Shown here piece by piece: positions 1 to 46,789 of a stretch of DNA of 46,789 nucleotides. Origin of the DNA: a virus. The translations under genes and the position numbers were made by a program. The notes under the pieces are model-generated. The model searched no databases. It was not told where the DNA came from and saw only the letters and a list, made by a program, of their open reading frames with translations. Location of the stretch: IMG/VR virus record IMGVR_UViG_3300045988_051134, one strand, 5' to 3'. Position 1 is the first letter of the stretch. Every line of letters starts with the position of its first letter.

Positions 1-133
1 GTAGTCATGTAGTCAATTAGGCCTCAGCCCTTGGGAGAGTAAGGCTGAGGCTGACTACAAGGTGACTACAAATGACTACACCAAATCGCTGAGCCCTTGG
101 GAGAGTAAGGCTCATTTTTTTGAAAATGACTAC
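1..133. repeat. Heptamer/stem-loop repeat block R1 (mirror copy of 46657..46789)
   Basis: GTAGTCA x2, 9-bp-stem hairpin (gcctcagcc/ggctgaggc), TGACTAC x4 and a second hairpin (tgagcc/ggctca). The window starts exactly on a heptamer. Confidence 0.9.
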
Positions 134-756
134 ACCAAACCCATCTGGTCGAATTGTTTTTGCATCTCGTAGTCGTTTTTGGCCTGTTGGTCTTCCGGAG
201 TTTGGGCCAGACTGTAGTATTCTTTGCAGTCAACCATTTCATTAAGCTGTTTGCCCTTGTATTCGCTCAAATCGGCCTTGCGGATTCGAACAATTCTTTC
301 AAAAATCGATTCGGGATCCAGACCGTCAAGCAAAGCCTTAAACTTAAACCAGCTCATTTTGCCTTTCTCTTCCAGCAAGTCGATGTGGTACGTCTGCATA
401 AAACTGGCGTAGATTGCGCCAGAATCGAGTTCAAAGTCAAATGCCCGGTCCCACTTGCCAACTGGATCGCTATCAACCGTGTTCCCGTAGGGATGTTTGC
501 TTACGTCCTCGGATACCGTCTGGAAGGTTTTAACTATGTCGTCATCGGTGGCATCCACCGGACCAACGAACATTAAGAATGTTCGTGTGGCCTTGATTTC
601 TTCGGGAAGATCAGATTCGACCAAGTTAAACCACCGCAGGACGTTATCGTAAGAATAGTCCAGTTCATACACCCCGGTGGTTAACTCGATGAATTTGTGG
701 TCTTCCTTACTTGGCGTCGACAGACTTAGCATTGCTGTTCTTGCGCTTCTTTGCAC
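130..756 (-). CDS. Tail assembly chaperone, T-like/Gp15-like ORF (copy of 46034..46660)
   Basis: Exact inverted copy; see the right-arm entry. Confidence 0.6.
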   Translation of the reverse strand: MQRSARTAMLSLSTPSKEDHKFIELTTGVYELDYSYDNVLRWFNLVESDLPEEIKATRTFLMFVGPVDATDDDIVKTFQTVSEDVSKHPYGNTVDSDPVGKWDRAFDFELDSGAIYASFMQTYHIDLLEEKGKMSWFKFKALLDGLDPESIFERIVRIRKADLSEYKGKQLNEMVDCKEYYSLAQTPEDQQAKNDYEMQKQFDQMGLV

Positions 757-1153
757 GGGCTACCGGGAACGACTCATTAAGTTTAGCCTGTTCGCTTCTG
801 GCTTGCTTCTCGCGTTCACGCTTAAGGGTTTCTTGAATTTGGCCAATTGCACGGGCTACTGCCTCAGAAGATCCGTGTGTCTGCTTCCAGATCTTTTCAC
901 CGGCGCCTGGCTCAAGCAGCTGGTCGATCGCATCAATCAGCGTGGTCTTCAATTCGCCCAGCAATTTAGCAATTTCTTCTTCACTAGGCTGGCCTTGGGC
1001 CAGTTCGGTCAGCTTGGCCTGGACATTGGTTGACTGGCCAGCAATAGAGCTGGCAACTCGAATATTTTCGTCGTTAGCATAAACGGTGTAAGTCTTGCCA
1101 TCAAGTTGAACATCGATTTTCGGAACACTAGTGTTTAAGTTTAAAACAGTCAT
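707..1153 (-). CDS. Tail assembly chaperone, G-like (copy of 45637..46083)
   Basis: Exact inverted copy; see the right-arm entry. Confidence 0.65.
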   Translation of the reverse strand: MTVLNLNTSVPKIDVQLDGKTYTVYANDENIRVASSIAGQSTNVQAKLTELAQGQPSEEEIAKLLGELKTTLIDAIDQLLEPGAGEKIWKQTHGSSEAVARAIGQIQETLKREREKQARSEQAKLNESFPVARAKKRKNSNAKSVDAK

Positions 1154-1167
1154 TTTTGCCTCCTACT

Positions 1168-1206
1168 AAAAAAGAAGGCCAGCTGTTAAGCTAGCCCTCC
1201 CTTCTT
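1168..1206 (-). terminator. Putative intrinsic terminator/attenuator after the major tail gene (copy of 45584..45622)
   Basis: Mirror of aagaagg...ccttctt stem followed by a T-run. Confidence 0.4.
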
Positions 1207-1208
1207 AA

Positions 1209-1688
1209 TTATACGCCTACAGTGTCGCTTAAGACACCTTTTCCGGATTCGGCTAGGGTAAAGGTCAAGGTTTGCTTGGCGTTACCGTTACCACCTCCGA
1301 CTACAATGCTTTGCACAACTACGCGGGTGATCAAGGTCTTGCCGTTCGGATATACGATCTTAAGCAAAGTCTTGGCTGCATTGCCAGTTGCTTGAGTTTG
1401 GTACAAGTTAAGAATATAGTCACATGCTGGATCGCCGACCAGAACGTGGCCAGTAACCGCCCATGTGTAGGCAGTCCCAGTCTTTTCTGGACTAGCGTTG
1501 TCTTCGTCTGCAAAGTAAATAGATGAGTCAGTAACATCGTTAGGCGCTGGAGTTACACCAGTCGTAAATGCTGCAAGGCTAGCAAAGCGTGCGTTAGTGG
1601 TCGTTTTTGGATCCAGGTTACCTCTTGTGTCAATAAAATATCCCGTCTGCCAGTTATGAGGAAAATATGGATTAGTGGTATCTACCAT
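1209..1688 (-). CDS. Major tail protein (copy of 45102..45581)
   Basis: Exact inverted copy; see the right-arm entry. Confidence 0.65.
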   Translation of the reverse strand: MVDTTNPYFPHNWQTGYFIDTRGNLDPKTTTNARFASLAAFTTGVTPAPNDVTDSSIYFADEDNASPEKTGTAYTWAVTGHVLVGDPACDYILNLYQTQATGNAAKTLLKIVYPNGKTLITRVVVQSIVVGGGNGNAKQTLTFTLAESGKGVLSDTVGV

Positions 1689-1692
1689 TTGA

Positions 1693-2106
1693 TTAGTCCT
1701 TTCTTATTAAATCAATGTAAACAATAAAATTCGTTATCCAGTACATCTTACCGGCCGTGTCGACTAGTTGATTAAACGGGAACCCGGTAATTTCTGCATG
1801 GTCGCAGGTAAAGGTCCCGTTTTGAGATTTCACCGTGTCACCGCTAATTCTTGAAATTGCATTAGCAATCGGGCTCAACAGCTGGCGTGCCGTAAGATAA
1901 TCTTCCGTCGAGCAGAGAATTTCATACTGCATGCTCATAGGTTGATTGCCGTTAAAATACGGCGCGCCTGTTGGTGCGGACCCAGGGTCCTGCAAAAGGC
2001 TAACTTGCCCATTTTCGGGCATGTGCCCCAGCATGATCGAGCCGCCCGTCTCCTTGTCGAAAAAGTCCGCCAGGCGGTCGTCTAAATCGAGTTGCTTAGT
2101 ATCCAC
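1693..2106 (-). CDS. Putative tail-completion/neck protein (copy of 44684..45097)
   Basis: Exact inverted copy. Confidence 0.45.
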   Translation of the reverse strand: MDTKQLDLDDRLADFFDKETGGSIMLGHMPENGQVSLLQDPGSAPTGAPYFNGNQPMSMQYEILCSTEDYLTARQLLSPIANAISRISGDTVKSQNGTFTCDHAEITGFPFNQLVDTAGKMYWITNFIVYIDLIRKD

Positions 2107-2437
2107 CCTTTGCCTCCTTTAAGAAGGCGGCAACCGCCACCTTCTGCCAATCTGCCTTATACACCGATTTGGCTCTTAAATCCCATCTGCGGCCCGTTCC
2201 TGGCGTTGAGTAGTTCCGTACCCGGTGACCATTTACGAAGCCGTAGAACTGCGCTCTCGCGTATTTGGCGGTGTAATGGACGCCAGTATCGTTGACAAAA
2301 CTCTGAGACCTCAAAAATCCTGCCCTTTTAGGCACGTATTGTTCCATGTCTTGGTGCATCTGGTTGAGCACCTGGAGCCTTACGCTTCGGGAACTCGTAC
2401 TCTGAGCCATACGGCTAAAAACGCGTAAATCGCTCAT
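2096..2437 (-). CDS. Putative neck/minor capsid protein (copy of 44353..44694)
   Basis: Exact inverted copy. Confidence 0.45.
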   Translation of the reverse strand: MSDLRVFSRMAQSTSSRSVRLQVLNQMHQDMEQYVPKRAGFLRSQSFVNDTGVHYTAKYARAQFYGFVNGHRVRNYSTPGTGRRWDLRAKSVYKADWQKVAVAAFLKEAKGGY

Positions 2438-2793
2438 TAGATTACCTCCAGCTCATAGCAATAAAGGTCTTCGGTGCCAGGCTGATCAAAGCGATTGATG
2501 CTTGTCACCGTGTATTCTTGCCCTTTATAGGTCAGCTTGGATTCAAGGTTCTCCTTGGTCAAGTTTGGAATTGGATTAGAGCATCCGGCGTACAACAAAA
2601 TCAGCCCGTTAGCCACGATTTGGCGGTCATTGTTAGTGCCGCTATAGGTGGTTTGCATGTTTACCACGCTATTTGCGATATCGCCCTCCCAGGCTGGAAT
2701 TGTACGACCATAGCGGTCCTTTTTGGCGCTCTGGTCAGTTAGCTTCAAGTGGACGGTCGACACGGCCATTTGATAGGGAATTGGGAGTTTCAT
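2437..2793 (-). CDS. Putative head-closure/neck protein (copy of 43997..44353)
   Basis: Exact inverted copy. Confidence 0.45.
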   Translation of the reverse strand: MKLPIPYQMAVSTVHLKLTDQSAKKDRYGRTIPAWEGDIANSVVNMQTTYSGTNNDRQIVANGLILLYAGCSNPIPNLTKENLESKLTYKGQEYTVTSINRFDQPGTEDLYCYELEVI

Positions 2794-3224
2794 AAACTTG
2801 ACACCCCACTAAACAGTAGTCCATAGCGTCCAAGAAGGTCGTAGGCTGACTTAACTACTCCGGTGCCTCCTACGGTCAAATTCTGGCTTGCTGAGGGGTT
2901 TAAACTCATGCTGGTATGTCCTACCGTAAACGAGCTTAAAGCGCATTGTGCGACCTCGTAGGCGCTAGAATAGCCGCTTTCTTCCAGGAATAACATCTCC
3001 AAGGCCACCGCCTTTTTAAAAGCCATTGCCTGGCGGAACAGATAGCTATCCGGATCGGCTTGCGAATCAGCCTCCAGGTCGTGGTAAGCAAAAGCTGGGT
3101 CATAGTACGAACAAATCTGGTTAATTAGGACTGTAGCATTCGCTAACAGCTTATCGAAGTTGTCCGGTTTTTTCAGTTCAAAGCCGAATTTTTCGAAATC
3201 ACTTGTCGTCAGATACGGTTTCAT
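2790..3224 (-). CDS. Putative head-tail connector/adaptor (copy of 43566..44000)
   Basis: Exact inverted copy. Confidence 0.45.
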   Translation of the reverse strand: MKPYLTTSDFEKFGFELKKPDNFDKLLANATVLINQICSYYDPAFAYHDLEADSQADPDSYLFRQAMAFKKAVALEMLFLEESGYSSAYEVAQCALSSFTVGHTSMSLNPSASQNLTVGGTGVVKSAYDLLGRYGLLFSGVSSL

Positions 3225-3416
3225 CGCTAGTCACTTCTTCCTTCTTTTTGACGGTCCGCTTAGTCGCAGCTTCAATCAGCGGAGTGCCAACAGTTGGGTG
3301 AGTGGCTAACAGCTCTTCTGCTCTGTCATCGTCCACGTCAATTTTTTGGCCTTTGAAAAAGTATCTGTGCTCCTTTCGGCCCCAGAAATCGTGAACTACC
3401 TTGTACTTGGCCACCA

Positions 3417-3417
<1 letters not shown>
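3199..3417 (-). CDS. Hypothetical protein (copy of 43373..43591)
   Basis: Exact inverted copy. Confidence 0.5.
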
Positions 3418-4280
<863 letters not shown>

Positions 4281-4288
4281 TTACTTAC

Positions 4289-4825
4289 TTATCCTTTCAA
4301 TCTTTGTGCAATTTTTTGATGCAGGCTGACATCCTTACCGCCAGCTTCCGGGTTCCCCGTAGGAAATGCCTGAATTGGCTTGCCAGCAGGCTTGTCTTCT
4401 GCAAACAAATAGCTTTCTGATTCCTTGAGAGATTTAAGCTGATCTTCCAACCCGGTTAAATTGCCCTTGCTGTCAAAGCGAATGTCATCGTGGTTAAGTA
4501 GAGCCTTAACCGCTTTAGCATTCTTGGCGCCAAAGTCCTTAATAGTGCTGGTGACGGCAAATTCAAGTTTCTGAGCGTTCAATTGCTTTGCGGCTTTTTC
4601 ATTGTCCGACTTCAATTTCTCGATTTGCTGGGTCAGTTCTTCGACGTTGGCGTTATTTGCCTTCAAATCTTCAATTTTGCTTGACAATTCACTACTAGTC
4701 TTCTTAAGCGCATCTCTTTCAGCTTCCAGGCCTTCATACTTCTGTAAATCCTTGCCATATTGAGCCATGATGCTGTTAACCTGGTCTGAATCCAGTCCTA
4801 AATCTGTCAAAAATTTTCTTTCCAT
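4289..4825 (-). CDS. Scaffolding protein (copy of 41965..42501)
   Basis: Exact inverted copy. Confidence 0.7.
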   Translation of the reverse strand: MERKFLTDLGLDSDQVNSIMAQYGKDLQKYEGLEAERDALKKTSSELSSKIEDLKANNANVEELTQQIEKLKSDNEKAAKQLNAQKLEFAVTSTIKDFGAKNAKAVKALLNHDDIRFDSKGNLTGLEDQLKSLKESESYLFAEDKPAGKPIQAFPTGNPEAGGKDVSLHQKIAQRLKG

Positions 4826-4889
4826 TAGTGTCTCCTTTACGTTAGTTTTACGAGTGACGAACTCGATCAGGACATAACAATAAGGCCTT

Positions 4890-6017
4890 TTAACGACTTA
4901 CCCAGGTCGATTCCCGGTCATATTGCCGGGTTAAGAAATCATTTTCACTTACTATTTTTCTAATTTTGGCTTGATAGCCGCGAATTGCGCTACTGCATTT
5001 CGCTGCCAGATTCGTGTTGCCGATTCGTTCAGCCGCTTCCTTGCGCTGCTTCCACTTGCGGACCTGCCGTTCGTAGTAGCGCTGAAGCTGTTGCTTTTTG
5101 CCGTTTTCAATTGCTTCTTGCTCATCATAGTGCTTCTGTCGGTTAATTGTAACACCTTCAACATAAGGATAGAGCTGGTGCATGCAGTTAATTCCCAGGG
5201 TTCCTGCAGGCGTTCCGTATCCGTAATCGTAGATTGTCGGATACTTATGGTTAAAACGTGAATCCCCGTGATCCACCACGTTTACCACCTTCCCTTGGAT
5301 TGGAGCGCAAGCTGGTCTGGCTGCTGGGTGCGACGTCATAATCGCCAACGTTTGGCTGTAATCTTTTAATGATTGCATTCTAACGTCGTTATAAGTTCGC
5401 AAGGTGGTTGTAGTAATGACCGTTCTTGTATAGCCCTCAAGGCTCCATTTGTGGCCGCCCTTGTCAATTAAGGTGGTAGGCAGGCCAGTCTTAACCCAGT
5501 CGTCGATATTGTCAAAAATCGCTTCCTGAGGTGTTTTAAGGCCTGTTGTGACCGCCAAGGTAGATTTGTTTAGAATATCTTGGTAAACCCTCAAAGCGGT
5601 ATTCTTGCCCACGTTGGTGGACAATAGCGACTGGTTGACGTTGTTGTCTAGGCTTTCCCAAGTTTGGGCTGCATAGGAGTCTAGCACTTGCATTGTTTCA
5701 GTGCTAACTGGCTTAATTGGCTGATTTAAAAGCTTAGCCAGGTCCCGGTTGAAGGACTGGCTGACCTTTAATCCATCGCGCTTGATTACGGAATCAACCG
5801 CTTTTGCAATTGCAGGCGATTGCTTTTTAACGTAGTCAACTACCTGCTTGGTTAAAGCACCCATTTGAGCTAGTGCTTTAATCCGCCATTCAACCATTTC
5901 CTCAGCCTTAAGATCAGTCAATCGAGGTCGGACACCTTTAATCGTGTCGATTAGCATTCCGAATATTTCCTGCTGCAGAATAACATATTGGTCGGCAACC
6001 TTCTCCGCGGGGCTCAT
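4890..6017 (-). CDS. Head morphogenesis/minor capsid protein, SPP1 gp7-like (copy of 40773..41900)
   Basis: Exact inverted copy. Confidence 0.7.
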   Translation of the reverse strand: MSPAEKVADQYVILQQEIFGMLIDTIKGVRPRLTDLKAEEMVEWRIKALAQMGALTKQVVDYVKKQSPAIAKAVDSVIKRDGLKVSQSFNRDLAKLLNQPIKPVSTETMQVLDSYAAQTWESLDNNVNQSLLSTNVGKNTALRVYQDILNKSTLAVTTGLKTPQEAIFDNIDDWVKTGLPTTLIDKGGHKWSLEGYTRTVITTTTLRTYNDVRMQSLKDYSQTLAIMTSHPAARPACAPIQGKVVNVVDHGDSRFNHKYPTIYDYGYGTPAGTLGINCMHQLYPYVEGVTINRQKHYDEQEAIENGKKQQLQRYYERQVRKWKQRKEAAERIGNTNLAAKCSSAIRGYQAKIRKIVSENDFLTRQYDRESTWVSR

Positions 6018-6019
6018 GG

Positions 6020-7537
6020 TTATTCACCACCAAACTGATTAAATTCTGGTTCTGCCGTTGAATTCTCCGCATCGATTTGTGCCAACCACTTATCGGCTTC
6101 TTCTTCGTCTAATCCGTAGTTGCGCATTAAAAATTGCTTCTTTGGCATGACCTGGGCTTGAACTGCCTGCAAGTCGGCCGCGCGCTTGCTTTCCTGGTCA
6201 ACAAAAACGCCATCGTTGAAGTTGATCGTGATATCCAGGCTATCTAAATCGCCAGTCCATCTCGCTTGGCCGTCAGCATAGAAGCTGTCCACGCTTGCTA
6301 GTTCGAAGATAGCATAGACCAATGCCTTGATAGTCTTTTCTACCTGGGTAATGTAAGAGGACCGTGTTTGATAGGTCTGGGAGTTGTTAGTAACCACCTC
6401 GGTGGCCGTTTGAATGCCGCTCGGTGATGTTGTGAACGTGCCCTGTGATAACCCCGTCTGGTTTTCAAATTCCCGCAGGAAAAAGTCCATCGTTGCTTGA
6501 TAATCAGCCACCCGAATCGGGCTAGTCGCGTCATGGAAGCCCACTTCGCTAGCATCCCCGTACATAGCTTGGTAAACAGTTTCGTCTGGGTCAAACATCG
6601 GCGGATGAGTTTCACTTGCCTGCCCGCCATAACTTGATCCAGTCTTGAGCCATTCAGCCGGAACAATTAAACGCCGCTGGCCCTTCTTAACTTCTTCGAC
6701 AAACTGGTCGTGTGTTCGGTTGATTGCGTCGATTACAGTGTAAGAGTTGTCAATCAGCGACAGGCCCATTGGGCTTGTAAGGTTTTTATTGTTGCTACCT
6801 TTGTTACGATAGAAGGCGAATAAAGGGCGTTTTAAGCCGGTAATCTTGACTTGTGGCTCTAACCCTTCATACTGCTCTAAAGTGCTCAGAGGGACGTTAA
6901 TTCCGACCGTGTCGGCTGTTTCTGAGCGATAGAGCTCGTTGGTAATCACATAGTCGCCGTGGTCCCATTGGTGGAATTCAAGCAGCGTGTAGTAGATGGT
7001 TCGGTGGCCTTCAACTTGGGTTGTTTTGGATGCGATTGCCAATTCGTTGACTTTGTTAGTATCAGCTTGAAGCGGGTAAATTTGGTCAGCCGTGGCCCAG
7101 GCTAGTTTAATCTTGCCATTTTCTACATACGGACGAACACACCCAGATCCCAGTGCAATCCATTCTTCCAGCTTCTCTTCAAAAGTAGTATAGAATTCGC
7201 TATCCTGGAAAACGCCGTCCAAAAAGTCGTTGGCAGTCTCATCGCTGACGGTGACCTGGCACTGCTCGTTAAAAATTAAACTGGCAAGCTTAGCACTGGC
7301 CAGCTTGGTGACATTAACTGATTGCAGTTCATGCTTCTGCGTTTCGCCGTATGAATTCTTGTGGGTGACTTGTTTAAAGTCATCCATGTAATAACGCTTG
7401 TCCCGTGCAATCCGCTCCACCTCATCGGCGGGCATATTGATCCGGGGATTGTCAATGATCTGGCCTAAACTTTTGGTCATTCCGACTGCTGCACTTCCTT
7501 TCCGAAACAAATTTCTGAGTGTATCCCAAAAAGCCAT
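6020..7537 (-). CDS. Portal protein (copy of 39253..40770)
   Basis: Exact inverted copy. Confidence 0.8.
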   Translation of the reverse strand: MAFWDTLRNLFRKGSAAVGMTKSLGQIIDNPRINMPADEVERIARDKRYYMDDFKQVTHKNSYGETQKHELQSVNVTKLASAKLASLIFNEQCQVTVSDETANDFLDGVFQDSEFYTTFEEKLEEWIALGSGCVRPYVENGKIKLAWATADQIYPLQADTNKVNELAIASKTTQVEGHRTIYYTLLEFHQWDHGDYVITNELYRSETADTVGINVPLSTLEQYEGLEPQVKITGLKRPLFAFYRNKGSNNKNLTSPMGLSLIDNSYTVIDAINRTHDQFVEEVKKGQRRLIVPAEWLKTGSSYGGQASETHPPMFDPDETVYQAMYGDASEVGFHDATSPIRVADYQATMDFFLREFENQTGLSQGTFTTSPSGIQTATEVVTNNSQTYQTRSSYITQVEKTIKALVYAIFELASVDSFYADGQARWTGDLDSLDITINFNDGVFVDQESKRAADLQAVQAQVMPKKQFLMRNYGLDEEEADKWLAQIDAENSTAEPEFNQFGGE

Positions 7538-7547
7538 ATTCCACCTC

Positions 7548-8861
7548 CTACCACTTCAAACCGAAGTCTCTTTCGTTGTCTAGCACGCAATACTTAAAAG
7601 CATCGACCGTGTGGTCGTCTTCCTTGATAACCTTGGGACTGTCGCTTTGGAGCGTGTTTTCATCCCATTGATATTTTTGGTGTTCCTTGATAAAAATCTG
7701 ATTGGCAGGCTGGTCAAGATAATAAACTCGGCCTTGTGCCAGTAGATCCTGGACCCGGTCGATCATGTCAACTTCTTTAAGCTTGTGGACCTTGTGCCAG
7801 CGGATCCCATACATCGAGTAATACTGATTGTCAAGCGCACCTTCGGCCGAATCCATTGTCAACCGTGTTGGATACTTATCATACTTCTCTGTCACCTTGT
7901 CGATAAAGTCATGGATGTCTTTAGCCAATTCGCTAGGTGGCTTCTTGTTCGTCTTGCCTGCTGGTGAGTAGTAGTAGGTGTCCAGCAGGTAAACGTCGCC
8001 CTTGCGAGTGAGACCTACTGCAACCACCGTGGTGGCAGAGACTTCGTGTCCTGCGTCCATGCCGTAGTAGATGTCGGTGATGTAGTCACCGTCAGGGATT
8101 GCACTGGCTGAATGGAATAGATCCATGTTGTAGACATTGGTTCCTAGACCTACGACCTCGCCAAGATAAAGCCATCGATAATAATCGAAGTCGTTTTTCT
8201 TGTAAGAATCGATCATGTCCAGCTGCTGCTTGGTCGTAAAGCCCAGCTTGTCGTCCAAATAAGTGGAATGATCAATAAAGAAATTTGGATCACTTTCCTT
8301 TTGAGTTATCCACTCATTTATCCACAGATAAGGATTTTTAGGCGGGTTATAGGAGCAGTAAACCTTAGCCTGGTCTAGCCAGGATGGCTTTTGTCGGATA
8401 AAGGTCGGTATCGCTTGGTCGAACACGTCGATATTTTTTAAATTGGCAAATTCTTCTAACCACACCGCGATTATATTGCCGACATTGTTAGACTTAAGCT
8501 TTAACGGGTCATTAGCGCCGTAGAAGTAAAAAGTTGAACCAGATTGAATATGTTCAATCTTAAGTGGGCTTGCCCTGGTTCTGAACTGGTCACTAACCTT
8601 AAGGATATCCATAGCCCAGAGAATCTGGTTATAAACCGAGTCCCGCAGGTAGCTGGCGTTTTCACGGATGCAGACCACGTTTGCTTTATGTCCAGCGTTG
8701 ATAGCCTTAAGCATGTCAAAGACAAGTTTGATGCTGATCACGGAGGATTTAAAGCTACCACGCCCTCCTTTAGCGATGACGTAGGGCTTTTCAGTATTCC
8801 AGAGTTTACGGAAGTGCGGGTTGATCTGGTCTGTCAGTCTAACCTTCATCTTCATCACCAT
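7548..8861 (-). CDS. terL: Terminase large subunit (copy of 37929..39242)
   Basis: Exact inverted copy. Confidence 0.85.
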   Translation of the reverse strand: MVMKMKVRLTDQINPHFRKLWNTEKPYVIAKGGRGSFKSSVISIKLVFDMLKAINAGHKANVVCIRENASYLRDSVYNQILWAMDILKVSDQFRTRASPLKIEHIQSGSTFYFYGANDPLKLKSNNVGNIIAVWLEEFANLKNIDVFDQAIPTFIRQKPSWLDQAKVYCSYNPPKNPYLWINEWITQKESDPNFFIDHSTYLDDKLGFTTKQQLDMIDSYKKNDFDYYRWLYLGEVVGLGTNVYNMDLFHSASAIPDGDYITDIYYGMDAGHEVSATTVVAVGLTRKGDVYLLDTYYYSPAGKTNKKPPSELAKDIHDFIDKVTEKYDKYPTRLTMDSAEGALDNQYYSMYGIRWHKVHKLKEVDMIDRVQDLLAQGRVYYLDQPANQIFIKEHQKYQWDENTLQSDSPKVIKEDDHTVDAFKYCVLDNERDFGLKW

Positions 8862-9276: not shown

Positions 9277-9298
9277 CTTTCTTACTTCTTACTGAAAC

Positions 9299-9324: not shown

Positions 9325-9420
9325 TTAACGTGTCTGTCTATTGCCCGCTCGGATACCTGATAGTAATATCGTCATCGCTTGGTTGAGTTTCTGCGGGTAA
9401 CTAGAAACTCAAGAGGGCTA

Positions 9421-37491: not shown

Positions 37492-37513
37492 GTTTCAGTA
37501 AGAAGTAAGAAAG

Positions 37514-37951: not shown

Positions 37952-39242
37952 ACTGACAGACCAGATCAACCCGCACTTCCGTAAACTCTGGAATACTGAA
38001 AAGCCCTACGTCATCGCTAAAGGAGGGCGTGGTAGCTTTAAATCCTCCGTGATCAGCATCAAACTTGTCTTTGACATGCTTAAGGCTATCAACGCTGGAC
38101 ATAAAGCAAACGTGGTCTGCATCCGTGAAAACGCCAGCTACCTGCGGGACTCGGTTTATAACCAGATTCTCTGGGCTATGGATATCCTTAAGGTTAGTGA
38201 CCAGTTCAGAACCAGGGCAAGCCCACTTAAGATTGAACATATTCAATCTGGTTCAACTTTTTACTTCTACGGCGCTAATGACCCGTTAAAGCTTAAGTCT
38301 AACAATGTCGGCAATATAATCGCGGTGTGGTTAGAAGAATTTGCCAATTTAAAAAATATCGACGTGTTCGACCAAGCGATACCGACCTTTATCCGACAAA
38401 AGCCATCCTGGCTAGACCAGGCTAAGGTTTACTGCTCCTATAACCCGCCTAAAAATCCTTATCTGTGGATAAATGAGTGGATAACTCAAAAGGAAAGTGA
38501 TCCAAATTTCTTTATTGATCATTCCACTTATTTGGACGACAAGCTGGGCTTTACGACCAAGCAGCAGCTGGACATGATCGATTCTTACAAGAAAAACGAC
38601 TTCGATTATTATCGATGGCTTTATCTTGGCGAGGTCGTAGGTCTAGGAACCAATGTCTACAACATGGATCTATTCCATTCAGCCAGTGCAATCCCTGACG
38701 GTGACTACATCACCGACATCTACTACGGCATGGACGCAGGACACGAAGTCTCTGCCACCACGGTGGTTGCAGTAGGTCTCACTCGCAAGGGCGACGTTTA
38801 CCTGCTGGACACCTACTACTACTCACCAGCAGGCAAGACGAACAAGAAGCCACCTAGCGAATTGGCTAAAGACATCCATGACTTTATCGACAAGGTGACA
38901 GAGAAGTATGATAAGTATCCAACACGGTTGACAATGGATTCGGCCGAAGGTGCGCTTGACAATCAGTATTACTCGATGTATGGGATCCGCTGGCACAAGG
39001 TCCACAAGCTTAAAGAAGTTGACATGATCGACCGGGTCCAGGATCTACTGGCACAAGGCCGAGTTTATTATCTTGACCAGCCTGCCAATCAGATTTTTAT
39101 CAAGGAACACCAAAAATATCAATGGGATGAAAACACGCTCCAAAGCGACAGTCCCAAGGTTATCAAGGAAGACGACCACACGGTCGATGCTTTTAAGTAT
39201 TGCGTGCTAGACAACGAAAGAGACTTCGGTTTGAAGTGGTAG
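37929..39242 (+). CDS. terL: Terminase large subunit
   Basis: 437 aa. Walker A-like AKGGRGSFKS, WLEE (Walker B-like), nuclease-half D..D motifs. Overlaps the terS end. Uninterrupted ORF with no intron. Confidence 0.85.
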   Translation: MVMKMKVRLTDQINPHFRKLWNTEKPYVIAKGGRGSFKSSVISIKLVFDMLKAINAGHKANVVCIRENASYLRDSVYNQILWAMDILKVSDQFRTRASPLKIEHIQSGSTFYFYGANDPLKLKSNNVGNIIAVWLEEFANLKNIDVFDQAIPTFIRQKPSWLDQAKVYCSYNPPKNPYLWINEWITQKESDPNFFIDHSTYLDDKLGFTTKQQLDMIDSYKKNDFDYYRWLYLGEVVGLGTNVYNMDLFHSASAIPDGDYITDIYYGMDAGHEVSATTVVAVGLTRKGDVYLLDTYYYSPAGKTNKKPPSELAKDIHDFIDKVTEKYDKYPTRLTMDSAEGALDNQYYSMYGIRWHKVHKLKEVDMIDRVQDLLAQGRVYYLDQPANQIFIKEHQKYQWDENTLQSDSPKVIKEDDHTVDAFKYCVLDNERDFGLKW

Positions 39243-39252
39243 GAGGTGGAAT

Positions 39253-40770
39253 ATGGCTTTTTGGGATACACTCAGAAATTTGTTTCGGAAAGGAAGTGCA
39301 GCAGTCGGAATGACCAAAAGTTTAGGCCAGATCATTGACAATCCCCGGATCAATATGCCCGCCGATGAGGTGGAGCGGATTGCACGGGACAAGCGTTATT
39401 ACATGGATGACTTTAAACAAGTCACCCACAAGAATTCATACGGCGAAACGCAGAAGCATGAACTGCAATCAGTTAATGTCACCAAGCTGGCCAGTGCTAA
39501 GCTTGCCAGTTTAATTTTTAACGAGCAGTGCCAGGTCACCGTCAGCGATGAGACTGCCAACGACTTTTTGGACGGCGTTTTCCAGGATAGCGAATTCTAT
39601 ACTACTTTTGAAGAGAAGCTGGAAGAATGGATTGCACTGGGATCTGGGTGTGTTCGTCCGTATGTAGAAAATGGCAAGATTAAACTAGCCTGGGCCACGG
39701 CTGACCAAATTTACCCGCTTCAAGCTGATACTAACAAAGTCAACGAATTGGCAATCGCATCCAAAACAACCCAAGTTGAAGGCCACCGAACCATCTACTA
39801 CACGCTGCTTGAATTCCACCAATGGGACCACGGCGACTATGTGATTACCAACGAGCTCTATCGCTCAGAAACAGCCGACACGGTCGGAATTAACGTCCCT
39901 CTGAGCACTTTAGAGCAGTATGAAGGGTTAGAGCCACAAGTCAAGATTACCGGCTTAAAACGCCCTTTATTCGCCTTCTATCGTAACAAAGGTAGCAACA
40001 ATAAAAACCTTACAAGCCCAATGGGCCTGTCGCTGATTGACAACTCTTACACTGTAATCGACGCAATCAACCGAACACACGACCAGTTTGTCGAAGAAGT
40101 TAAGAAGGGCCAGCGGCGTTTAATTGTTCCGGCTGAATGGCTCAAGACTGGATCAAGTTATGGCGGGCAGGCAAGTGAAACTCATCCGCCGATGTTTGAC
40201 CCAGACGAAACTGTTTACCAAGCTATGTACGGGGATGCTAGCGAAGTGGGCTTCCATGACGCGACTAGCCCGATTCGGGTGGCTGATTATCAAGCAACGA
40301 TGGACTTTTTCCTGCGGGAATTTGAAAACCAGACGGGGTTATCACAGGGCACGTTCACAACATCACCGAGCGGCATTCAAACGGCCACCGAGGTGGTTAC
40401 TAACAACTCCCAGACCTATCAAACACGGTCCTCTTACATTACCCAGGTAGAAAAGACTATCAAGGCATTGGTCTATGCTATCTTCGAACTAGCAAGCGTG
40501 GACAGCTTCTATGCTGACGGCCAAGCGAGATGGACTGGCGATTTAGATAGCCTGGATATCACGATCAACTTCAACGATGGCGTTTTTGTTGACCAGGAAA
40601 GCAAGCGCGCGGCCGACTTGCAGGCAGTTCAAGCCCAGGTCATGCCAAAGAAGCAATTTTTAATGCGCAACTACGGATTAGACGAAGAAGAAGCCGATAA
40701 GTGGTTGGCACAAATCGATGCGGAGAATTCAACGGCAGAACCAGAATTTAATCAGTTTGGTGGTGAATAA
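39253..40770 (+). CDS. Portal protein (SPP1 gp6-like)
   Basis: 505 aa with GGAGGTGG RBS. Size and position directly after terL. Confidence 0.8.
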   Translation: MAFWDTLRNLFRKGSAAVGMTKSLGQIIDNPRINMPADEVERIARDKRYYMDDFKQVTHKNSYGETQKHELQSVNVTKLASAKLASLIFNEQCQVTVSDETANDFLDGVFQDSEFYTTFEEKLEEWIALGSGCVRPYVENGKIKLAWATADQIYPLQADTNKVNELAIASKTTQVEGHRTIYYTLLEFHQWDHGDYVITNELYRSETADTVGINVPLSTLEQYEGLEPQVKITGLKRPLFAFYRNKGSNNKNLTSPMGLSLIDNSYTVIDAINRTHDQFVEEVKKGQRRLIVPAEWLKTGSSYGGQASETHPPMFDPDETVYQAMYGDASEVGFHDATSPIRVADYQATMDFFLREFENQTGLSQGTFTTSPSGIQTATEVVTNNSQTYQTRSSYITQVEKTIKALVYAIFELASVDSFYADGQARWTGDLDSLDITINFNDGVFVDQESKRAADLQAVQAQVMPKKQFLMRNYGLDEEEADKWLAQIDAENSTAEPEFNQFGGE

Positions 40771-40772
40771 CC

Positions 40773-41900
40773 ATGAGCCCCGCGGAGAAGGTTGCCGACC
40801 AATATGTTATTCTGCAGCAGGAAATATTCGGAATGCTAATCGACACGATTAAAGGTGTCCGACCTCGATTGACTGATCTTAAGGCTGAGGAAATGGTTGA
40901 ATGGCGGATTAAAGCACTAGCTCAAATGGGTGCTTTAACCAAGCAGGTAGTTGACTACGTTAAAAAGCAATCGCCTGCAATTGCAAAAGCGGTTGATTCC
41001 GTAATCAAGCGCGATGGATTAAAGGTCAGCCAGTCCTTCAACCGGGACCTGGCTAAGCTTTTAAATCAGCCAATTAAGCCAGTTAGCACTGAAACAATGC
41101 AAGTGCTAGACTCCTATGCAGCCCAAACTTGGGAAAGCCTAGACAACAACGTCAACCAGTCGCTATTGTCCACCAACGTGGGCAAGAATACCGCTTTGAG
41201 GGTTTACCAAGATATTCTAAACAAATCTACCTTGGCGGTCACAACAGGCCTTAAAACACCTCAGGAAGCGATTTTTGACAATATCGACGACTGGGTTAAG
41301 ACTGGCCTGCCTACCACCTTAATTGACAAGGGCGGCCACAAATGGAGCCTTGAGGGCTATACAAGAACGGTCATTACTACAACCACCTTGCGAACTTATA
41401 ACGACGTTAGAATGCAATCATTAAAAGATTACAGCCAAACGTTGGCGATTATGACGTCGCACCCAGCAGCCAGACCAGCTTGCGCTCCAATCCAAGGGAA
41501 GGTGGTAAACGTGGTGGATCACGGGGATTCACGTTTTAACCATAAGTATCCGACAATCTACGATTACGGATACGGAACGCCTGCAGGAACCCTGGGAATT
41601 AACTGCATGCACCAGCTCTATCCTTATGTTGAAGGTGTTACAATTAACCGACAGAAGCACTATGATGAGCAAGAAGCAATTGAAAACGGCAAAAAGCAAC
41701 AGCTTCAGCGCTACTACGAACGGCAGGTCCGCAAGTGGAAGCAGCGCAAGGAAGCGGCTGAACGAATCGGCAACACGAATCTGGCAGCGAAATGCAGTAG
41801 CGCAATTCGCGGCTATCAAGCCAAAATTAGAAAAATAGTAAGTGAAAATGATTTCTTAACCCGGCAATATGACCGGGAATCGACCTGGGTAAGTCGTTAA
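40773..41900 (+). CDS. Head morphogenesis/minor capsid protein (SPP1 gp7-like)
   Basis: 375 aa, directly after the portal gene. Confidence 0.7.
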   Translation: MSPAEKVADQYVILQQEIFGMLIDTIKGVRPRLTDLKAEEMVEWRIKALAQMGALTKQVVDYVKKQSPAIAKAVDSVIKRDGLKVSQSFNRDLAKLLNQPIKPVSTETMQVLDSYAAQTWESLDNNVNQSLLSTNVGKNTALRVYQDILNKSTLAVTTGLKTPQEAIFDNIDDWVKTGLPTTLIDKGGHKWSLEGYTRTVITTTTLRTYNDVRMQSLKDYSQTLAIMTSHPAARPACAPIQGKVVNVVDHGDSRFNHKYPTIYDYGYGTPAGTLGINCMHQLYPYVEGVTINRQKHYDEQEAIENGKKQQLQRYYERQVRKWKQRKEAAERIGNTNLAAKCSSAIRGYQAKIRKIVSENDFLTRQYDRESTWVSR

Positions 41901-41964
41901 AAGGCCTTATTGTTATGTCCTGATCGAGTTCGTCACTCGTAAAACTAACGTAAAGGAGACACTA

Positions 41965-42501
41965 ATGGAAAGAAAATTTTTGACAGATTTAGGACTGGAT
42001 TCAGACCAGGTTAACAGCATCATGGCTCAATATGGCAAGGATTTACAGAAGTATGAAGGCCTGGAAGCTGAAAGAGATGCGCTTAAGAAGACTAGTAGTG
42101 AATTGTCAAGCAAAATTGAAGATTTGAAGGCAAATAACGCCAACGTCGAAGAACTGACCCAGCAAATCGAGAAATTGAAGTCGGACAATGAAAAAGCCGC
42201 AAAGCAATTGAACGCTCAGAAACTTGAATTTGCCGTCACCAGCACTATTAAGGACTTTGGCGCCAAGAATGCTAAAGCGGTTAAGGCTCTACTTAACCAC
42301 GATGACATTCGCTTTGACAGCAAGGGCAATTTAACCGGGTTGGAAGATCAGCTTAAATCTCTCAAGGAATCAGAAAGCTATTTGTTTGCAGAAGACAAGC
42401 CTGCTGGCAAGCCAATTCAGGCATTTCCTACGGGGAACCCGGAAGCTGGCGGTAAGGATGTCAGCCTGCATCAAAAAATTGCACAAAGATTGAAAGGATA
42501 A
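41965..42501 (+). CDS. Scaffolding protein
   Basis: 178 aa, highly charged coiled coil (EELTQQIEKLKSDNEKAAKQL), immediately before the capsid gene. Confidence 0.7.
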   Translation: MERKFLTDLGLDSDQVNSIMAQYGKDLQKYEGLEAERDALKKTSSELSSKIEDLKANNANVEELTQQIEKLKSDNEKAAKQLNAQKLEFAVTSTIKDFGAKNAKAVKALLNHDDIRFDSKGNLTGLEDQLKSLKESESYLFAEDKPAGKPIQAFPTGNPEAGGKDVSLHQKIAQRLKG

Positions 42502-42509
42502 GTAAGTAA

Positions 42510-43372
<863 letters not shown>

Positions 43373-43373
<1 letters not shown>

Positions 43374-43591
43374 TGGTGGCCAAGTACAAGGTAGTTCACG
43401 ATTTCTGGGGCCGAAAGGAGCACAGATACTTTTTCAAAGGCCAAAAAATTGACGTGGACGATGACAGAGCAGAAGAGCTGTTAGCCACTCACCCAACTGT
43501 TGGCACTCCGCTGATTGAAGCTGCGACTAAGCGGACCGTCAAAAAGAAGGAAGAAGTGACTAGCGATGAAACCGTATCTGACGACAAGTGA
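43373..43591 (+). CDS. Hypothetical protein
   Basis: 72 aa; TAATG overlap with the MCP stop. Confidence 0.5.
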
Positions 43592-44000
43592 TTTCGAAAA
43601 ATTCGGCTTTGAACTGAAAAAACCGGACAACTTCGATAAGCTGTTAGCGAATGCTACAGTCCTAATTAACCAGATTTGTTCGTACTATGACCCAGCTTTT
43701 GCTTACCACGACCTGGAGGCTGATTCGCAAGCCGATCCGGATAGCTATCTGTTCCGCCAGGCAATGGCTTTTAAAAAGGCGGTGGCCTTGGAGATGTTAT
43801 TCCTGGAAGAAAGCGGCTATTCTAGCGCCTACGAGGTCGCACAATGCGCTTTAAGCTCGTTTACGGTAGGACATACCAGCATGAGTTTAAACCCCTCAGC
43901 AAGCCAGAATTTGACCGTAGGAGGCACCGGAGTAGTTAAGTCAGCCTACGACCTTCTTGGACGCTATGGACTACTGTTTAGTGGGGTGTCAAGTTTATGA
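43566..44000 (+). CDS. Putative head-tail connector/adaptor
   Basis: 144 aa; position-based call (MCP to major tail interval). Confidence 0.45.
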   Translation: MKPYLTTSDFEKFGFELKKPDNFDKLLANATVLINQICSYYDPAFAYHDLEADSQADPDSYLFRQAMAFKKAVALEMLFLEESGYSSAYEVAQCALSSFTVGHTSMSLNPSASQNLTVGGTGVVKSAYDLLGRYGLLFSGVSSL

Positions 44001-44353
44001 AACTCCCAATTCCCTATCAAATGGCCGTGTCGACCGTCCACTTGAAGCTAACTGACCAGAGCGCCAAAAAGGACCGCTATGGTCGTACAATTCCAGCCTG
44101 GGAGGGCGATATCGCAAATAGCGTGGTAAACATGCAAACCACCTATAGCGGCACTAACAATGACCGCCAAATCGTGGCTAACGGGCTGATTTTGTTGTAC
44201 GCCGGATGCTCTAATCCAATTCCAAACTTGACCAAGGAGAACCTTGAATCCAAGCTGACCTATAAAGGGCAAGAATACACGGTGACAAGCATCAATCGCT
44301 TTGATCAGCCTGGCACCGAAGACCTTTATTGCTATGAGCTGGAGGTAATCTAA
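43997..44353 (+). CDS. Putative head-closure/neck protein
   Basis: 118 aa; 4-nt overlap with the upstream gene; position-based call. Confidence 0.45.
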   Translation: MKLPIPYQMAVSTVHLKLTDQSAKKDRYGRTIPAWEGDIANSVVNMQTTYSGTNNDRQIVANGLILLYAGCSNPIPNLTKENLESKLTYKGQEYTVTSINRFDQPGTEDLYCYELEVI

Positions 44354-44694
44354 TGAGCGATTTACGCGTTTTTAGCCGTATGGCTCAGAGTACGAGTTCC
44401 CGAAGCGTAAGGCTCCAGGTGCTCAACCAGATGCACCAAGACATGGAACAATACGTGCCTAAAAGGGCAGGATTTTTGAGGTCTCAGAGTTTTGTCAACG
44501 ATACTGGCGTCCATTACACCGCCAAATACGCGAGAGCGCAGTTCTACGGCTTCGTAAATGGTCACCGGGTACGGAACTACTCAACGCCAGGAACGGGCCG
44601 CAGATGGGATTTAAGAGCCAAATCGGTGTATAAGGCAGATTGGCAGAAGGTGGCGGTTGCCGCCTTCTTAAAGGAGGCAAAGGGTGGATACTAA
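44353..44694 (+). CDS. Putative neck/minor capsid protein
   Basis: 113 aa. ...YTAKYARAQFYG...STPGTGRRW... resembles the 'minor capsid protein' family of LAB phages. Confidence 0.45.
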   Translation: MSDLRVFSRMAQSTSSRSVRLQVLNQMHQDMEQYVPKRAGFLRSQSFVNDTGVHYTAKYARAQFYGFVNGHRVRNYSTPGTGRRWDLRAKSVYKADWQKVAVAAFLKEAKGGY

Positions 44695-45097
44695 GCAACT
44701 CGATTTAGACGACCGCCTGGCGGACTTTTTCGACAAGGAGACGGGCGGCTCGATCATGCTGGGGCACATGCCCGAAAATGGGCAAGTTAGCCTTTTGCAG
44801 GACCCTGGGTCCGCACCAACAGGCGCGCCGTATTTTAACGGCAATCAACCTATGAGCATGCAGTATGAAATTCTCTGCTCGACGGAAGATTATCTTACGG
44901 CACGCCAGCTGTTGAGCCCGATTGCTAATGCAATTTCAAGAATTAGCGGTGACACGGTGAAATCTCAAAACGGGACCTTTACCTGCGACCATGCAGAAAT
45001 TACCGGGTTCCCGTTTAATCAACTAGTCGACACGGCCGGTAAGATGTACTGGATAACGAATTTTATTGTTTACATTGATTTAATAAGAAAGGACTAA
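44684..45097 (+). CDS. Putative tail-completion/neck protein
   Basis: 137 aa; last gene before the major tail gene. Confidence 0.45.
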   Translation: MDTKQLDLDDRLADFFDKETGGSIMLGHMPENGQVSLLQDPGSAPTGAPYFNGNQPMSMQYEILCSTEDYLTARQLLSPIANAISRISGDTVKSQNGTFTCDHAEITGFPFNQLVDTAGKMYWITNFIVYIDLIRKD

Positions 45098-45101
45098 TCA
45101 A

Positions 45102-45581
45102 ATGGTAGATACCACTAATCCATATTTTCCTCATAACTGGCAGACGGGATATTTTATTGACACAAGAGGTAACCTGGATCCAAAAACGACCACTAACGCA
45201 CGCTTTGCTAGCCTTGCAGCATTTACGACTGGTGTAACTCCAGCGCCTAACGATGTTACTGACTCATCTATTTACTTTGCAGACGAAGACAACGCTAGTC
45301 CAGAAAAGACTGGGACTGCCTACACATGGGCGGTTACTGGCCACGTTCTGGTCGGCGATCCAGCATGTGACTATATTCTTAACTTGTACCAAACTCAAGC
45401 AACTGGCAATGCAGCCAAGACTTTGCTTAAGATCGTATATCCGAACGGCAAGACCTTGATCACCCGCGTAGTTGTGCAAAGCATTGTAGTCGGAGGTGGT
45501 AACGGTAACGCCAAGCAAACCTTGACCTTTACCCTAGCCGAATCCGGAAAAGGTGTCTTAAGCGACACTGTAGGCGTATAA
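45102..45581 (+). CDS. Major tail protein
   Basis: 159 aa, followed by a hairpin + T-run and then the chaperone pair. Confidence 0.65.
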   Translation: MVDTTNPYFPHNWQTGYFIDTRGNLDPKTTTNARFASLAAFTTGVTPAPNDVTDSSIYFADEDNASPEKTGTAYTWAVTGHVLVGDPACDYILNLYQTQATGNAAKTLLKIVYPNGKTLITRVVVQSIVVGGGNGNAKQTLTFTLAESGKGVLSDTVGV

Positions 45582-45583
45582 TT

Positions 45584-45622
45584 AAGAAGGGAGGGCTAGC
45601 TTAACAGCTGGCCTTCTTTTTT
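45584..45622 (+). terminator. Putative intrinsic terminator/attenuator after the major tail gene
   Basis: aagaagg...ccttctt 7-bp stem (large loop with an inner agct/agct pair) followed by TTTT. Confidence 0.4.
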
Positions 45623-45636
45623 AGTAGGAGGCAAAA

Positions 45637-46083
45637 ATGACTGTTTTAAACTTAAACACTAGTGTTCCGAAAATCGATGTTCAACTTGATGGCAAGACTT
45701 ACACCGTTTATGCTAACGACGAAAATATTCGAGTTGCCAGCTCTATTGCTGGCCAGTCAACCAATGTCCAGGCCAAGCTGACCGAACTGGCCCAAGGCCA
45801 GCCTAGTGAAGAAGAAATTGCTAAATTGCTGGGCGAATTGAAGACCACGCTGATTGATGCGATCGACCAGCTGCTTGAGCCAGGCGCCGGTGAAAAGATC
45901 TGGAAGCAGACACACGGATCTTCTGAGGCAGTAGCCCGTGCAATTGGCCAAATTCAAGAAACCCTTAAGCGTGAACGCGAGAAGCAAGCCAGAAGCGAAC
46001 AGGCTAAACTTAATGAGTCGTTCCCGGTAGCCCGTGCAAAGAAGCGCAAGAACAGCAATGCTAAGTCTGTCGACGCCAAGTAA
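45637..46083 (+). CDS. Tail assembly chaperone (G-like)
   Basis: 148 aa with TAGGAGG RBS. Position between major tail and TMP. Overlapped at its 3' end by the next ORF. Confidence 0.65.
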   Translation: MTVLNLNTSVPKIDVQLDGKTYTVYANDENIRVASSIAGQSTNVQAKLTELAQGQPSEEEIAKLLGELKTTLIDAIDQLLEPGAGEKIWKQTHGSSEAVARAIGQIQETLKREREKQARSEQAKLNESFPVARAKKRKNSNAKSVDAK

Positions 46084-46660
46084 GGAAGACCACAAATTCA
46101 TCGAGTTAACCACCGGGGTGTATGAACTGGACTATTCTTACGATAACGTCCTGCGGTGGTTTAACTTGGTCGAATCTGATCTTCCCGAAGAAATCAAGGC
46201 CACACGAACATTCTTAATGTTCGTTGGTCCGGTGGATGCCACCGATGACGACATAGTTAAAACCTTCCAGACGGTATCCGAGGACGTAAGCAAACATCCC
46301 TACGGGAACACGGTTGATAGCGATCCAGTTGGCAAGTGGGACCGGGCATTTGACTTTGAACTCGATTCTGGCGCAATCTACGCCAGTTTTATGCAGACGT
46401 ACCACATCGACTTGCTGGAAGAGAAAGGCAAAATGAGCTGGTTTAAGTTTAAGGCTTTGCTTGACGGTCTGGATCCCGAATCGATTTTTGAAAGAATTGT
46501 TCGAATCCGCAAGGCCGATTTGAGCGAATACAAGGGCAAACAGCTTAATGAAATGGTTGACTGCAAAGAATACTACAGTCTGGCCCAAACTCCGGAAGAC
46601 CAACAGGCCAAAAACGACTACGAGATGCAAAAACAATTCGACCAGATGGGTTTGGTGTAG
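46034..46660 (+). CDS. Tail assembly chaperone, T-like ORF (Gp15-like)
   Basis: This frame is open from 46031 and overlaps the G ORF by about 50 nt in the +1 frame. An internal ATG at 46058 has only a weak RBS. YELDYSYDNVLRWFNLVESDLPEE resembles phage Gp15-type TAC proteins. Confidence 0.6.
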   Translation: MQRSARTAMLSLSTPSKEDHKFIELTTGVYELDYSYDNVLRWFNLVESDLPEEIKATRTFLMFVGPVDATDDDIVKTFQTVSEDVSKHPYGNTVDSDPVGKWDRAFDFELDSGAIYASFMQTYHIDLLEEKGKMSWFKFKALLDGLDPESIFERIVRIRKADLSEYKGKQLNEMVDCKEYYSLAQTPEDQQAKNDYEMQKQFDQMGLV

Positions 46661-46789
46661 TCATTTTCAAAAAAATGAGCCTTACTCTCCCAAGGGCTCA
46701 GCGATTTGGTGTAGTCATTTGTAGTCACCTTGTAGTCAGCCTCAGCCTTACTCTCCCAAGGGCTGAGGCCTAATTGACTACATGACTAC
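46657..46789. repeat. Repeat block R1: second, partial copy of the R2 heptamer/stem-loop module, after the tail chaperone gene
   Basis: GTAGTCA at 46657, 46711, 46721, 46732. TGACTAC at 46775, 46783. Hairpins at 46676-46700 and 46739-46769. Roughly 85% alignable to 34413-34548, but with both 13-nt loops inverted. Confidence 0.9.

Follow-up and report, generated by a model that had tools for sequence, protein, structure and literature searches.

A 12.4-kb inverted terminal repeat in a phage contig is very probably a misassembly caused by a genuine 69-nt inverted repeat

The viral contig IMGVR_UViG_3300045988_051134, whose whole length of 46,789 nt was analysed here and is called the window below, carries the same 12.4 kb at both ends in opposite orientations, and the question that it raises is whether a phage really possesses such long inverted terminal repeats (ITRs) or whether its packaging and structural genes came to be written twice by other means. 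When the window was compared with its own reverse complement, the longest common prefix was 12,382 nt, i.e., positions 1..12382 and 34408..46789 are reverse complements of each other with 0 mismatches, and the identity stops abruptly at 12383/34407, where one mismatch is followed by four chance matches and then by random sequence. Chance cannot account for perfect inverted identity over such a length. The zero divergence between the two arms does not discriminate between the explanations, since real ITRs can be identical too. Each arm contains small ORFs, terS, terL, the portal, scaffold, MCP, connector and major tail genes and two chaperone ORFs, all present twice in the window, on the minus strand in the left arm and on the plus strand in the right arm, and the genes of the core between them are all on the plus strand. 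Apart from short repeats linked to two origin-like intergenic elements, the core is without long repeats. An earlier sequence-only reading, which had reported a perfect inverted duplication around a unique core and a duplication of the arm genes, was accurate as a description of the sequence; it is, however, very unlikely that the window represents a real DNA molecule.

The traits of the LL-H-like phage group are present, namely the synteny of the structural module, an iteron element between the chaperone and TMP genes, and a unit genome of about 35-37 kb. In the single-copy core (12383..34407, plus strand), which is 100% identical at the nucleotide level to contigs L009 and L013, the genes for the TMP (12397..15945), Dit (15955..17844), a tail protein (17844..20234) and a Gp58-like fibre (20251..22110), all on the plus strand, are followed by those for a collagen-repeat protein of 450 aa and a GH25/LysM endolysin and by HTH and Bro-N/ANT genes, and the replication genes, also on the plus strand, are arranged in the order helicase, AAA_24, DUF669, Prim-Pol and VapE-like helicase (33061..34413). 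The genuine single copy of the remaining genes lies on the plus strand at 34477..46789 (100% identical to L011, L013 and L014) and encodes the small ORFs, terS (Terminase_2 in Pfam), terL (Terminase_3), the portal, the head and tail proteins and the chaperones. This segment is collinear with 874..11218 of LL-H and 17253..28660 of phiJB, at about 85% identity, and the LL-H-like phages LL-H, phiJB and mv4 align collinearly with 77-92% of the arm, and with the initial 8-10 kb of the core, at 85-86% identity. In LL-H and phiJB the chaperone genes are followed by a non-coding element of roughly 280-450 nt and then by TMP, and the tail assembly chaperone pair of the window (45637..46660, plus strand; a 148-aa protein and an overlapping Gp15-family ORF) has the origin-like element and then TMP downstream of it in the relatives. 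LL-H is described as a pac-type phage (PMC12470161), and by this kinship the window phage would be expected to package its DNA by the headful (pac) mechanism and to have a circularly permuted genome.

The arrangement expected from the relatives was found in other assemblies of the same genotype, which are independent as assemblies, although the samples may not be, as the same or sister sequencing runs are possible. The contig k141_7707 (L009; ENA ERZ27272194), with a length of 34,733 bp that includes 71 nt of polyT and Illumina adapter, is 100% identical to the window across 13,563 nt. Upstream of TMP exactly 69 nt of it match the window (12314..12382), and farther upstream its sequence is orthologous to the right halves of the LL-H and L006 origins and wholly missing from the window. 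NODE_169_length_34598 (ENA ERZ1744003) is 100% identical across 20,225 nt and terminates, by coordinate arithmetic, exactly where the window does, and scaffold_931 (L011; ENA ERZ28596645), 100% identical across 11,153 nt, runs 61 nt past position 46789. The natural gene order is present in assemblies of 34,598 and 34,733 bp, one of which was made at k=141. The Logan contigs, assembled at k=31, end at repeat boundaries, with L010 starting 30 nt before 12383 and L015 starting at 34408. An exact search of IMG/VR with the start of the core gave 0 matches, and the 74-aa ORF with a small flank matched Logan contigs only.

The real repeat of the phage genome is a 69-nt perfect inverted repeat, one copy of which is located directly before the TMP ribosome-binding site (12314..12382, plus strand) and the other at 34408..34476 (minus strand), where its natural context is seen in phiJB from 16590 onwards and in L013 and L014. 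The copy at 12314..12382 consists of a TGACTACACC iteron, a CCCTACTCTCCCAAGGG hairpin and a second iteron, forms the right end of origin-like element 2, and includes a 59-nt module that has been inserted in comparison with LL-H and L006. The copy at 34408..34476 forms the left end of origin-like element 1, a non-coding quasi-palindrome of 318 nt (34408..34725; phiJB orthologue 16593..16847) in which 11 heptamers (GTAGTCA/TGACTAC) form inverted clusters and which also has CCCTTGGGAGAGTAAGG hairpins, an A/T palindrome (34550..34581) and a G-rich tract. Of element 2, the left half occupies 46650..46789 and is orthologous to the putative rep_origin annotated in LL-H (11170..11440); it is cut off at ATTGACTACATGACTAC, shortly before the centre of the element, and both ends of the window lie here. 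The right half is missing from the window and present in k141_7707. In relatives the centre of element 2 is a palindrome of A/T only, within which the assembly of the relative L004 also breaks. The sequence-only reading had contained neither the 69-nt repeat nor the two origin-like elements nor the kinship with LL-H.

These findings make 1..12313 (minus strand), which is the reverse complement of 34477..46789, a very probably false duplicate of the packaging-head-tail-shaft segment, as k141_7707 differs from the window upstream of 12314 and a walk through an assembly graph reproduces the copy. The natural genome was represented by a sequence of 34,669 nt, composed of the 201-nt head of k141_7707, window positions 12383..46789 and the 61-nt tail of scaffold_931, and this length is a lower bound for the unit genome. 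Compared with this representation, the window contains no novel k-mers for any k up to 70, and a single one at k=71, starting at 12313. A toy de Bruijn graph with k=55 was then simulated from the natural genome broken at the unassembled centre of element 2, which gave unitigs of 69, 186, 12,367 and 22,133 nt. SPAdes-type tip clipping removes dead ends up to a threshold of about 3.5 x k, the value assumed here; once the 186-nt dead-end tip was clipped, there was one possible walk, and its 46,789 nt were identical to the window. With k of 77 or more, the same natural genome yielded a single unitig of 34,608 nt.

In our view the window very probably arose by misassembly from an ordinary LL-H-like L. 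delbrueckii siphophage of the pac type, the unit genome of which measures ~34.7 kb. The real, circularly permuted genome would run from TMP to the replication genes (core C), through element 1, along segment A with the small ORFs, terS, the head and tail genes and the chaperones in this order, and through element 2 back to TMP. With the centre of element 2 unassembled, the 69-nt repeat (IR) would collapse, in a de Bruijn graph built at k=70 or below, to a single edge joined to both ends of C, and the short dead end that element 2 leaves on the left side of the repeat would be clipped as a tip. The sole walk left would be rc(A)-IR-C-rc(IR)-A, which contains A once in each orientation and has the same dead end in element 2 at either end of the contig. 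The false 12.4-kb ITR would thus have appeared because the genuine 69-nt inverted repeat made the assembly cross the phage genome twice. We infer the assembler and the k that were used, and likewise a drop in coverage as the cause of the break. Real inversion isomers are unnecessary, as the 69-nt inverted repeat and a coverage gap in element 2 suffice. The sequence-only reading had preferred two merged paths or a chimera over a genuine ITR genome, and this preference is supported by the contigs of 34.6-34.7 kb, and further by the sequence past 46789, the divergence upstream of TMP beyond 69 nt and the exact graph walk.

The 69-nt repeat also invites readings in which a molecule like the window did exist. 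The copies on two linear or broken genomes could recombine, possibly with the help of the AAA_24/Sak4-like annealase of the phage, to give an abundant head-to-head rc(A)-C-A by-product; the perfect repeat is real, the phage does have an AAA_24 protein, annotated in phiJB as a Sak4-like annealing protein, and the Logan contig L012, from a 99.6%-identical variant, has the left half of element 2 fused to the reverse-complemented right half of element 1, a junction of the reciprocal type. The L012 junction, however, crosses an exact repeat of 32 nt, i.e., at least k-1 at the Logan k=31, and could equally be a graph artefact. Moreover, 46.8 kb would be 135% of the unit genome for a headful packager with capsid genes about 85% identical to those of LL-H, the chaperone-TMP late operon is split in the window structure, the other assemblies of the genotype (including the one at k=141) have the natural order, and up to k=70 nothing in the window demands a molecule of this kind, all of which makes this origin of the contig highly improbable. 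A similarly low probability attaches to a library or amplification chimera, in which template switching at the 69-nt repeat (e.g., during MDA or PCR) would have made fragments that the assembler then followed: both breakpoints do lie in hairpin- and repeat-rich origin-like DNA that would be prone to strand switching, and this origin would account for the contig even with k above 70, but the graph walk by itself yields the exact window, and the breakpoint is the full boundary of the repeat and not a microhomology. Should the source k have been above 70, at least some reads or read pairs backing the inverted junction would be required, and the contig would then more likely stem from chimeric fragments or from real recombinants than from the graph alone. 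A simple microhomology chimera was not supported, as the end of the window shares no more than 0-1 nt with the inner end of the arm; the junction is explained instead by the 69-nt repeat, the second copy of which falls in part beyond what the window contains.

A genuine linear genome of 46.8 kb with 12.4-kb ITRs, replicating from hairpin telomeres or by protein priming, has the contig itself as its sole support, besides the fact that perfect identity is permitted to real ITRs, and it comes close to being untenable. Protelomerase, terminal protein, PolB and invertase genes were not found when 10 unassigned or large ORFs were scanned against Pfam and the precomputed Pfam assignments of the rest were consulted, with very small ORFs without matches as a possible exception; the matches were only to helicase, AAA_24, DUF669, Prim-Pol, VapE-like, VRR_NUC, ANT and HTH families, in agreement with the earlier remark that genes for telomeres or protein priming are absent. 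The nearest relatives are of the pac type, measure 34.7-37 kb and have chaperone genes, origin-like element and TMP in collinear order, and the same genotype assembles elsewhere to 34.6-34.7 kb. The supposed termini sit mid-way in a conserved origin-like element, part of which the window lacks, and scaffold_931 continues beyond one of them. Reading through a hairpin telomere was also rejected, as it would yield an arm followed by its reverse complement without the 22-kb spacer, and so was a site-specific invertase, for which no recombinase or invertase gene was found in these Pfam data and which would leave the arm unduplicated. In the preferred reading, that of a misassembly, what is left as genuine is modest, namely an LL-H-type phage with two related origin-like iteron elements that have a 69-bp inverted module in common. 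That this module is used in vivo, with recombination or strand switching leading to inversion isomers or to head-to-head 46.8-kb replicative by-products that would probably be non-packageable, is very doubtful.

By terminal-repeat criteria for ITRs, the contig would be rated a "complete" viral genome of 46.8 kb, and catalogues would gain an inflated size and 23 duplicated genes, the correct unit being about 34.7 kb. The case documents one concrete and reproducible way in which false kilobase ITRs can arise, through the combination of a short real inverted repeat, missing coverage in a palindromic, A/T-rich origin and tip clipping.

Among known phages, the virulent LL-H of Lactobacillus delbrueckii (NC_009554 / EF455602; 34,659 bp) has the same gene order and 85-86% nucleotide identity from terS to the chaperones and from TMP to the tail genes, and its size fits the core, one arm and the missing origin piece of the window, about 34.7 kb. 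As in the window phage, a hairpin-rich non-coding element with GTAGTCA iterons lies between chaperone and TMP in LL-H and is the putative rep_origin annotated there. LL-H differs in its replication module, which has a replication initiator and a DnaC-like loader, in a terL with an intron/HNH, and in lacking the 59-nt extra module beside the TMP ribosome-binding site that makes up the bulk of the 69-nt repeat here. The temperate Lactobacillus phage phiJB (NC_022775; 36,969 bp), with structural genes about 85% identical, has the replication module found here (helicase, AAA_24/Sak4-like, DUF669/SSB, Prim-Pol and VapE-like) and also both origin-like elements, after the VapE-like gene and between chaperone and TMP, but it carries integrase and repressor genes, and its second element has iterons of the GTAGAAA and not the GTAGTCA type. 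Metagenomic viral contigs of the ITR type and with repeated genomes are documented assembly artefacts, described with CheckV (PMC8116208) and for phages of a Dutch cohort (PMC9610469), and like the window they are over-long, with doubled sequence, an ITR called at the ends and an ITR-free assembly elsewhere. Unlike in those cases, the cause was traced here to a specific 69-nt repeat and a clipped tip, and the contig was reproduced base for base. The graph topology resembles that of plastid LSC-IR-SSC genomes, in which the two ends of a single-copy segment meet the same collapsed inverted-repeat edge and the flanking sequence is walked in both orientations; in plastids, however, the genome does carry two copies of the long inverted repeat, whereas here only 69 nt are truly duplicated and the remaining 12.3 kb are single-copy.

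Comparison of the whole window with its own reverse complement gave a longest self-reverse-complementary prefix of 12,382 nt with 0 mismatches; therefore, 1..12382 is the reverse complement of 34408..46789, and arm identity is sharply lost at 12383/34407. In the ORF listing, the arm genes lie on the minus strand in the left copy and on the plus strand in the right copy, and the core genes all run in one direction on the plus strand, from the tape-measure gene (TMP, 12397..15945) through Dit, tail proteins, lysis genes, early genes, helicase, AAA_24, DUF669 and Prim-Pol to the VapE-like gene. The sequence-only reading had thus described the inverted duplication accurately. The 12.4-kb duplication is not a real feature, and the window very probably arose by misassembly of an ordinary ~34.7-kb phage.

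This phage belongs to the LL-H/phiJB group as a new member. Megablast against phage records matched it to the L. delbrueckii phages LL-H (34,659 bp) and phiJB (36,969 bp), at ~85-86% identity, and the core plus one arm amount to 34,407 bp, a few hundred bases under the size of LL-H, for which pac-type packaging is mentioned in PMC12470161 (citing Ravin et al. 2006). In LL-H and phiJB, respectively, the arm corresponds collinearly to 874..11218 and 17253..28660, and the start of the core to the regions beginning at 11454 and 29104. Between the tail chaperone genes and TMP, both relatives have a non-coding element of ~280-450 nt, which the LL-H record labels a putative rep_origin (11170..11440).

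Both arm ends fall in related non-coding elements rich in iterons and hairpins. Element 1 (34408..34725), located between the VapE-like gene and small ORFs, is quasi-palindromic. It contains 11 GTAGTCA/TGACTAC heptamers together with CCCTTGGGAGAGTAAGG hairpins, an A/T palindrome and a tract rich in G, and is orthologous to phiJB 16593..16847. The left half of element 2 (46650..46789, the window end) is orthologous to the LL-H origin and stops at ATTGACTACATGACTAC, where LL-H, phiJB and two further relatives (L005 and L006) run on into an A/T-only palindromic centre and then the right half. Mirror copies of element 1 and of this element 2 half occupy 12065-12382 and 1-140 in the left arm, and the window holds 42 heptamers (3.5 expected), 34 of them within the origin-like elements. 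Core homology to the relatives starts at 12383 (AGAAAGG, the ribosome-binding site of TMP) or a few bases away: the phiJB alignment begins at core position 1, that to LL-H at 8. The window therefore lacks the element 2 centre and right half and carries the reverse complement of element 1 instead. One genome thus holds two related elements, element 1 after the replication genes and element 2 between tail chaperone and TMP at the LL-H putative ori site, both with CCTTACTCTCCCAAGGG-type hairpins whose loops are found in both orientations. phiJB also has both elements, but with GTAGAAA iterons in the second one. The two are putative origins, of which one may instead be a regulatory site.

Exact-protein look-ups located contigs 100% nt-identical to the window: ENA ERZ27272194 k141_7707 (34,733 bp; identical across 13,563 nt), ERZ1744003 NODE_169_length_34598 (across 20,225 nt, its end being window end base 46789 by coordinate arithmetic) and ERZ28596645 scaffold_931 (11,153 nt up to 46789, then 61 nt extra); several Logan k=31 contigs likewise match this genotype. 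Upstream of TMP, k141_7707 and the window agree over exactly 69 nt (12314..12382); beyond these, k141_7707 diverges and aligns to the right halves of the LL-H and L006 origins, with the CCTTGCGGCAGTAAGG hairpin, ATGTTTGGAAAAGG and repeats of GGGAAC. The window there is the reverse complement of element 1 throughout, and a 132-nt phage piece of k141_7707 is missing from it. The real genome therefore carries a 69-nt perfect inverted repeat, with one copy at 34408..34476 and the other abutting the TMP ribosome-binding site. An extra module (window 12324-12382), absent there in LL-H (~11440) and L006 (~2990), makes up 59 of the 69 nt and comprises a hairpin and an iteron directly upstream of that site. 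This module repeats the left end of element 1 in inverted orientation, so it looks as if an origin module was recently duplicated in inverted form, or transferred, within this phage. At its terminus (1-71), the MEGAHIT contig k141_7707 has 13 T and then 58 nt, which we take to be the full Illumina TruSeq universal adapter, fused directly to phage ATAGATATAGGG in the element 2 centre; untrimmed adapter read-through was therefore assembled. This hints that several fragments ended at the same element 2 base, perhaps because the DNA breaks there preferentially or because coverage is very low.

K-mer containment and graph simulation support the artefact model. A natural representation of 34,669 nt, joining a 201-nt head from k141_7707, window 12383..46789 and a 61-nt tail from scaffold_931, contains all window k-mers as long as k does not exceed 70; at k=71 a single one, starting at 12313, is novel. 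When this genome was broken at the element 2 centre, a toy bidirected de Bruijn graph (k=55) gave four unitigs: arm (12,367 nt), core (22,133 nt), the 69-nt repeat and the right-hand stub of element 2, which forms a dead-end tip of 186 nt. With the tip removed, the repeat edge receives both ends of the core, and the sole walk, of 46,789 nt, is base-for-base the window; at k of 77 or more, a single unitig of 34,608 nt results. The short inverted repeat would thus collapse to one edge and, after tip loss, the assembler would walk the arm twice in opposite orientations, having presumably used k of 70 or less (the default k of metaSPAdes reaches 55) and clipped tips below ~3.5 x k. The artefact model is also fitted by Logan k=31 contigs that break at the repeat boundaries (one begins 30 nt before 12383, another at 34408) and by the breaks within or next to the element 2 centre shared by the window, NODE_169, k141_7707, scaffold_931 and the relative IMGVR_UViG_2636415456_000001. 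The last contig ends (1-20) within ATATATTATATATAATATAT, the A/T-only palindrome central to the chaperone-TMP element, which supports this element as a systematic assembly breakpoint in the LL-H/phiJB group.

A genuine linear genome with ITRs is contradicted by several observations: a Pfam search of the window genes for a protelomerase, terminal protein or PolB found none, the supposed terminus has sequence past it in another assembly, some phage DNA is missing from the window, the same genotype was assembled at unit length, and the supposed termini lie within a conserved origin-like element. Real recombination across the 69-bp repeat would fit one Logan contig of a 99.6%-identical variant (SRR3993017_8201, ~1810-1935), in which the chaperone-side (left) half of element 2 is linked to the right half of element 1 in reverse complement, a reciprocal "inversion" type of junction. 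Because this junction runs via an exact repeat of 32 nt, which is no shorter than k-1 at k=31, a graph effect explains it equally, and an artefact of the k=31 graph is its probable source. The junction is the sole observation that also fits a real inversion. Real recombination and template-switch chimeras are both unlikely origins of the window, and neither is needed to obtain it. False ITR and repeated-genome viral contigs are already documented: only 33.2% of ITR contigs were of high quality in CheckV, where repeated-genome contigs were ascribed to assembly artefacts (PMC8116208), and vOTUs with mixed DTR and ITR members were flagged as suspect (PMC9610469).

In a 450-aa ORF (22830-24182), Pfam identifies a collagen triple-helix repeat (E=1.5e-6). 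The first ~460 nt of this ORF are ~85% identical to tail-fibre/structural genes of L. paracasei phages (CL1, CL2, iLp1308, MLC-A), and the region before it has matches in the flanks of two insertion-element records, mv4 "MIS" and LL-K "KIS". It looks like a receptor-binding module swapped across Lactobacillus species. The terL gene is unbroken in the window (37929-39242, 437 aa) and likewise in phiJB, whereas the LL-H record gives terL (1647-3785) as a join of two parts, with an ORF for an HNH endonuclease embedded in it (intron). The structural genes of the phage are LL-H-like and its replication module is phiJB-like.
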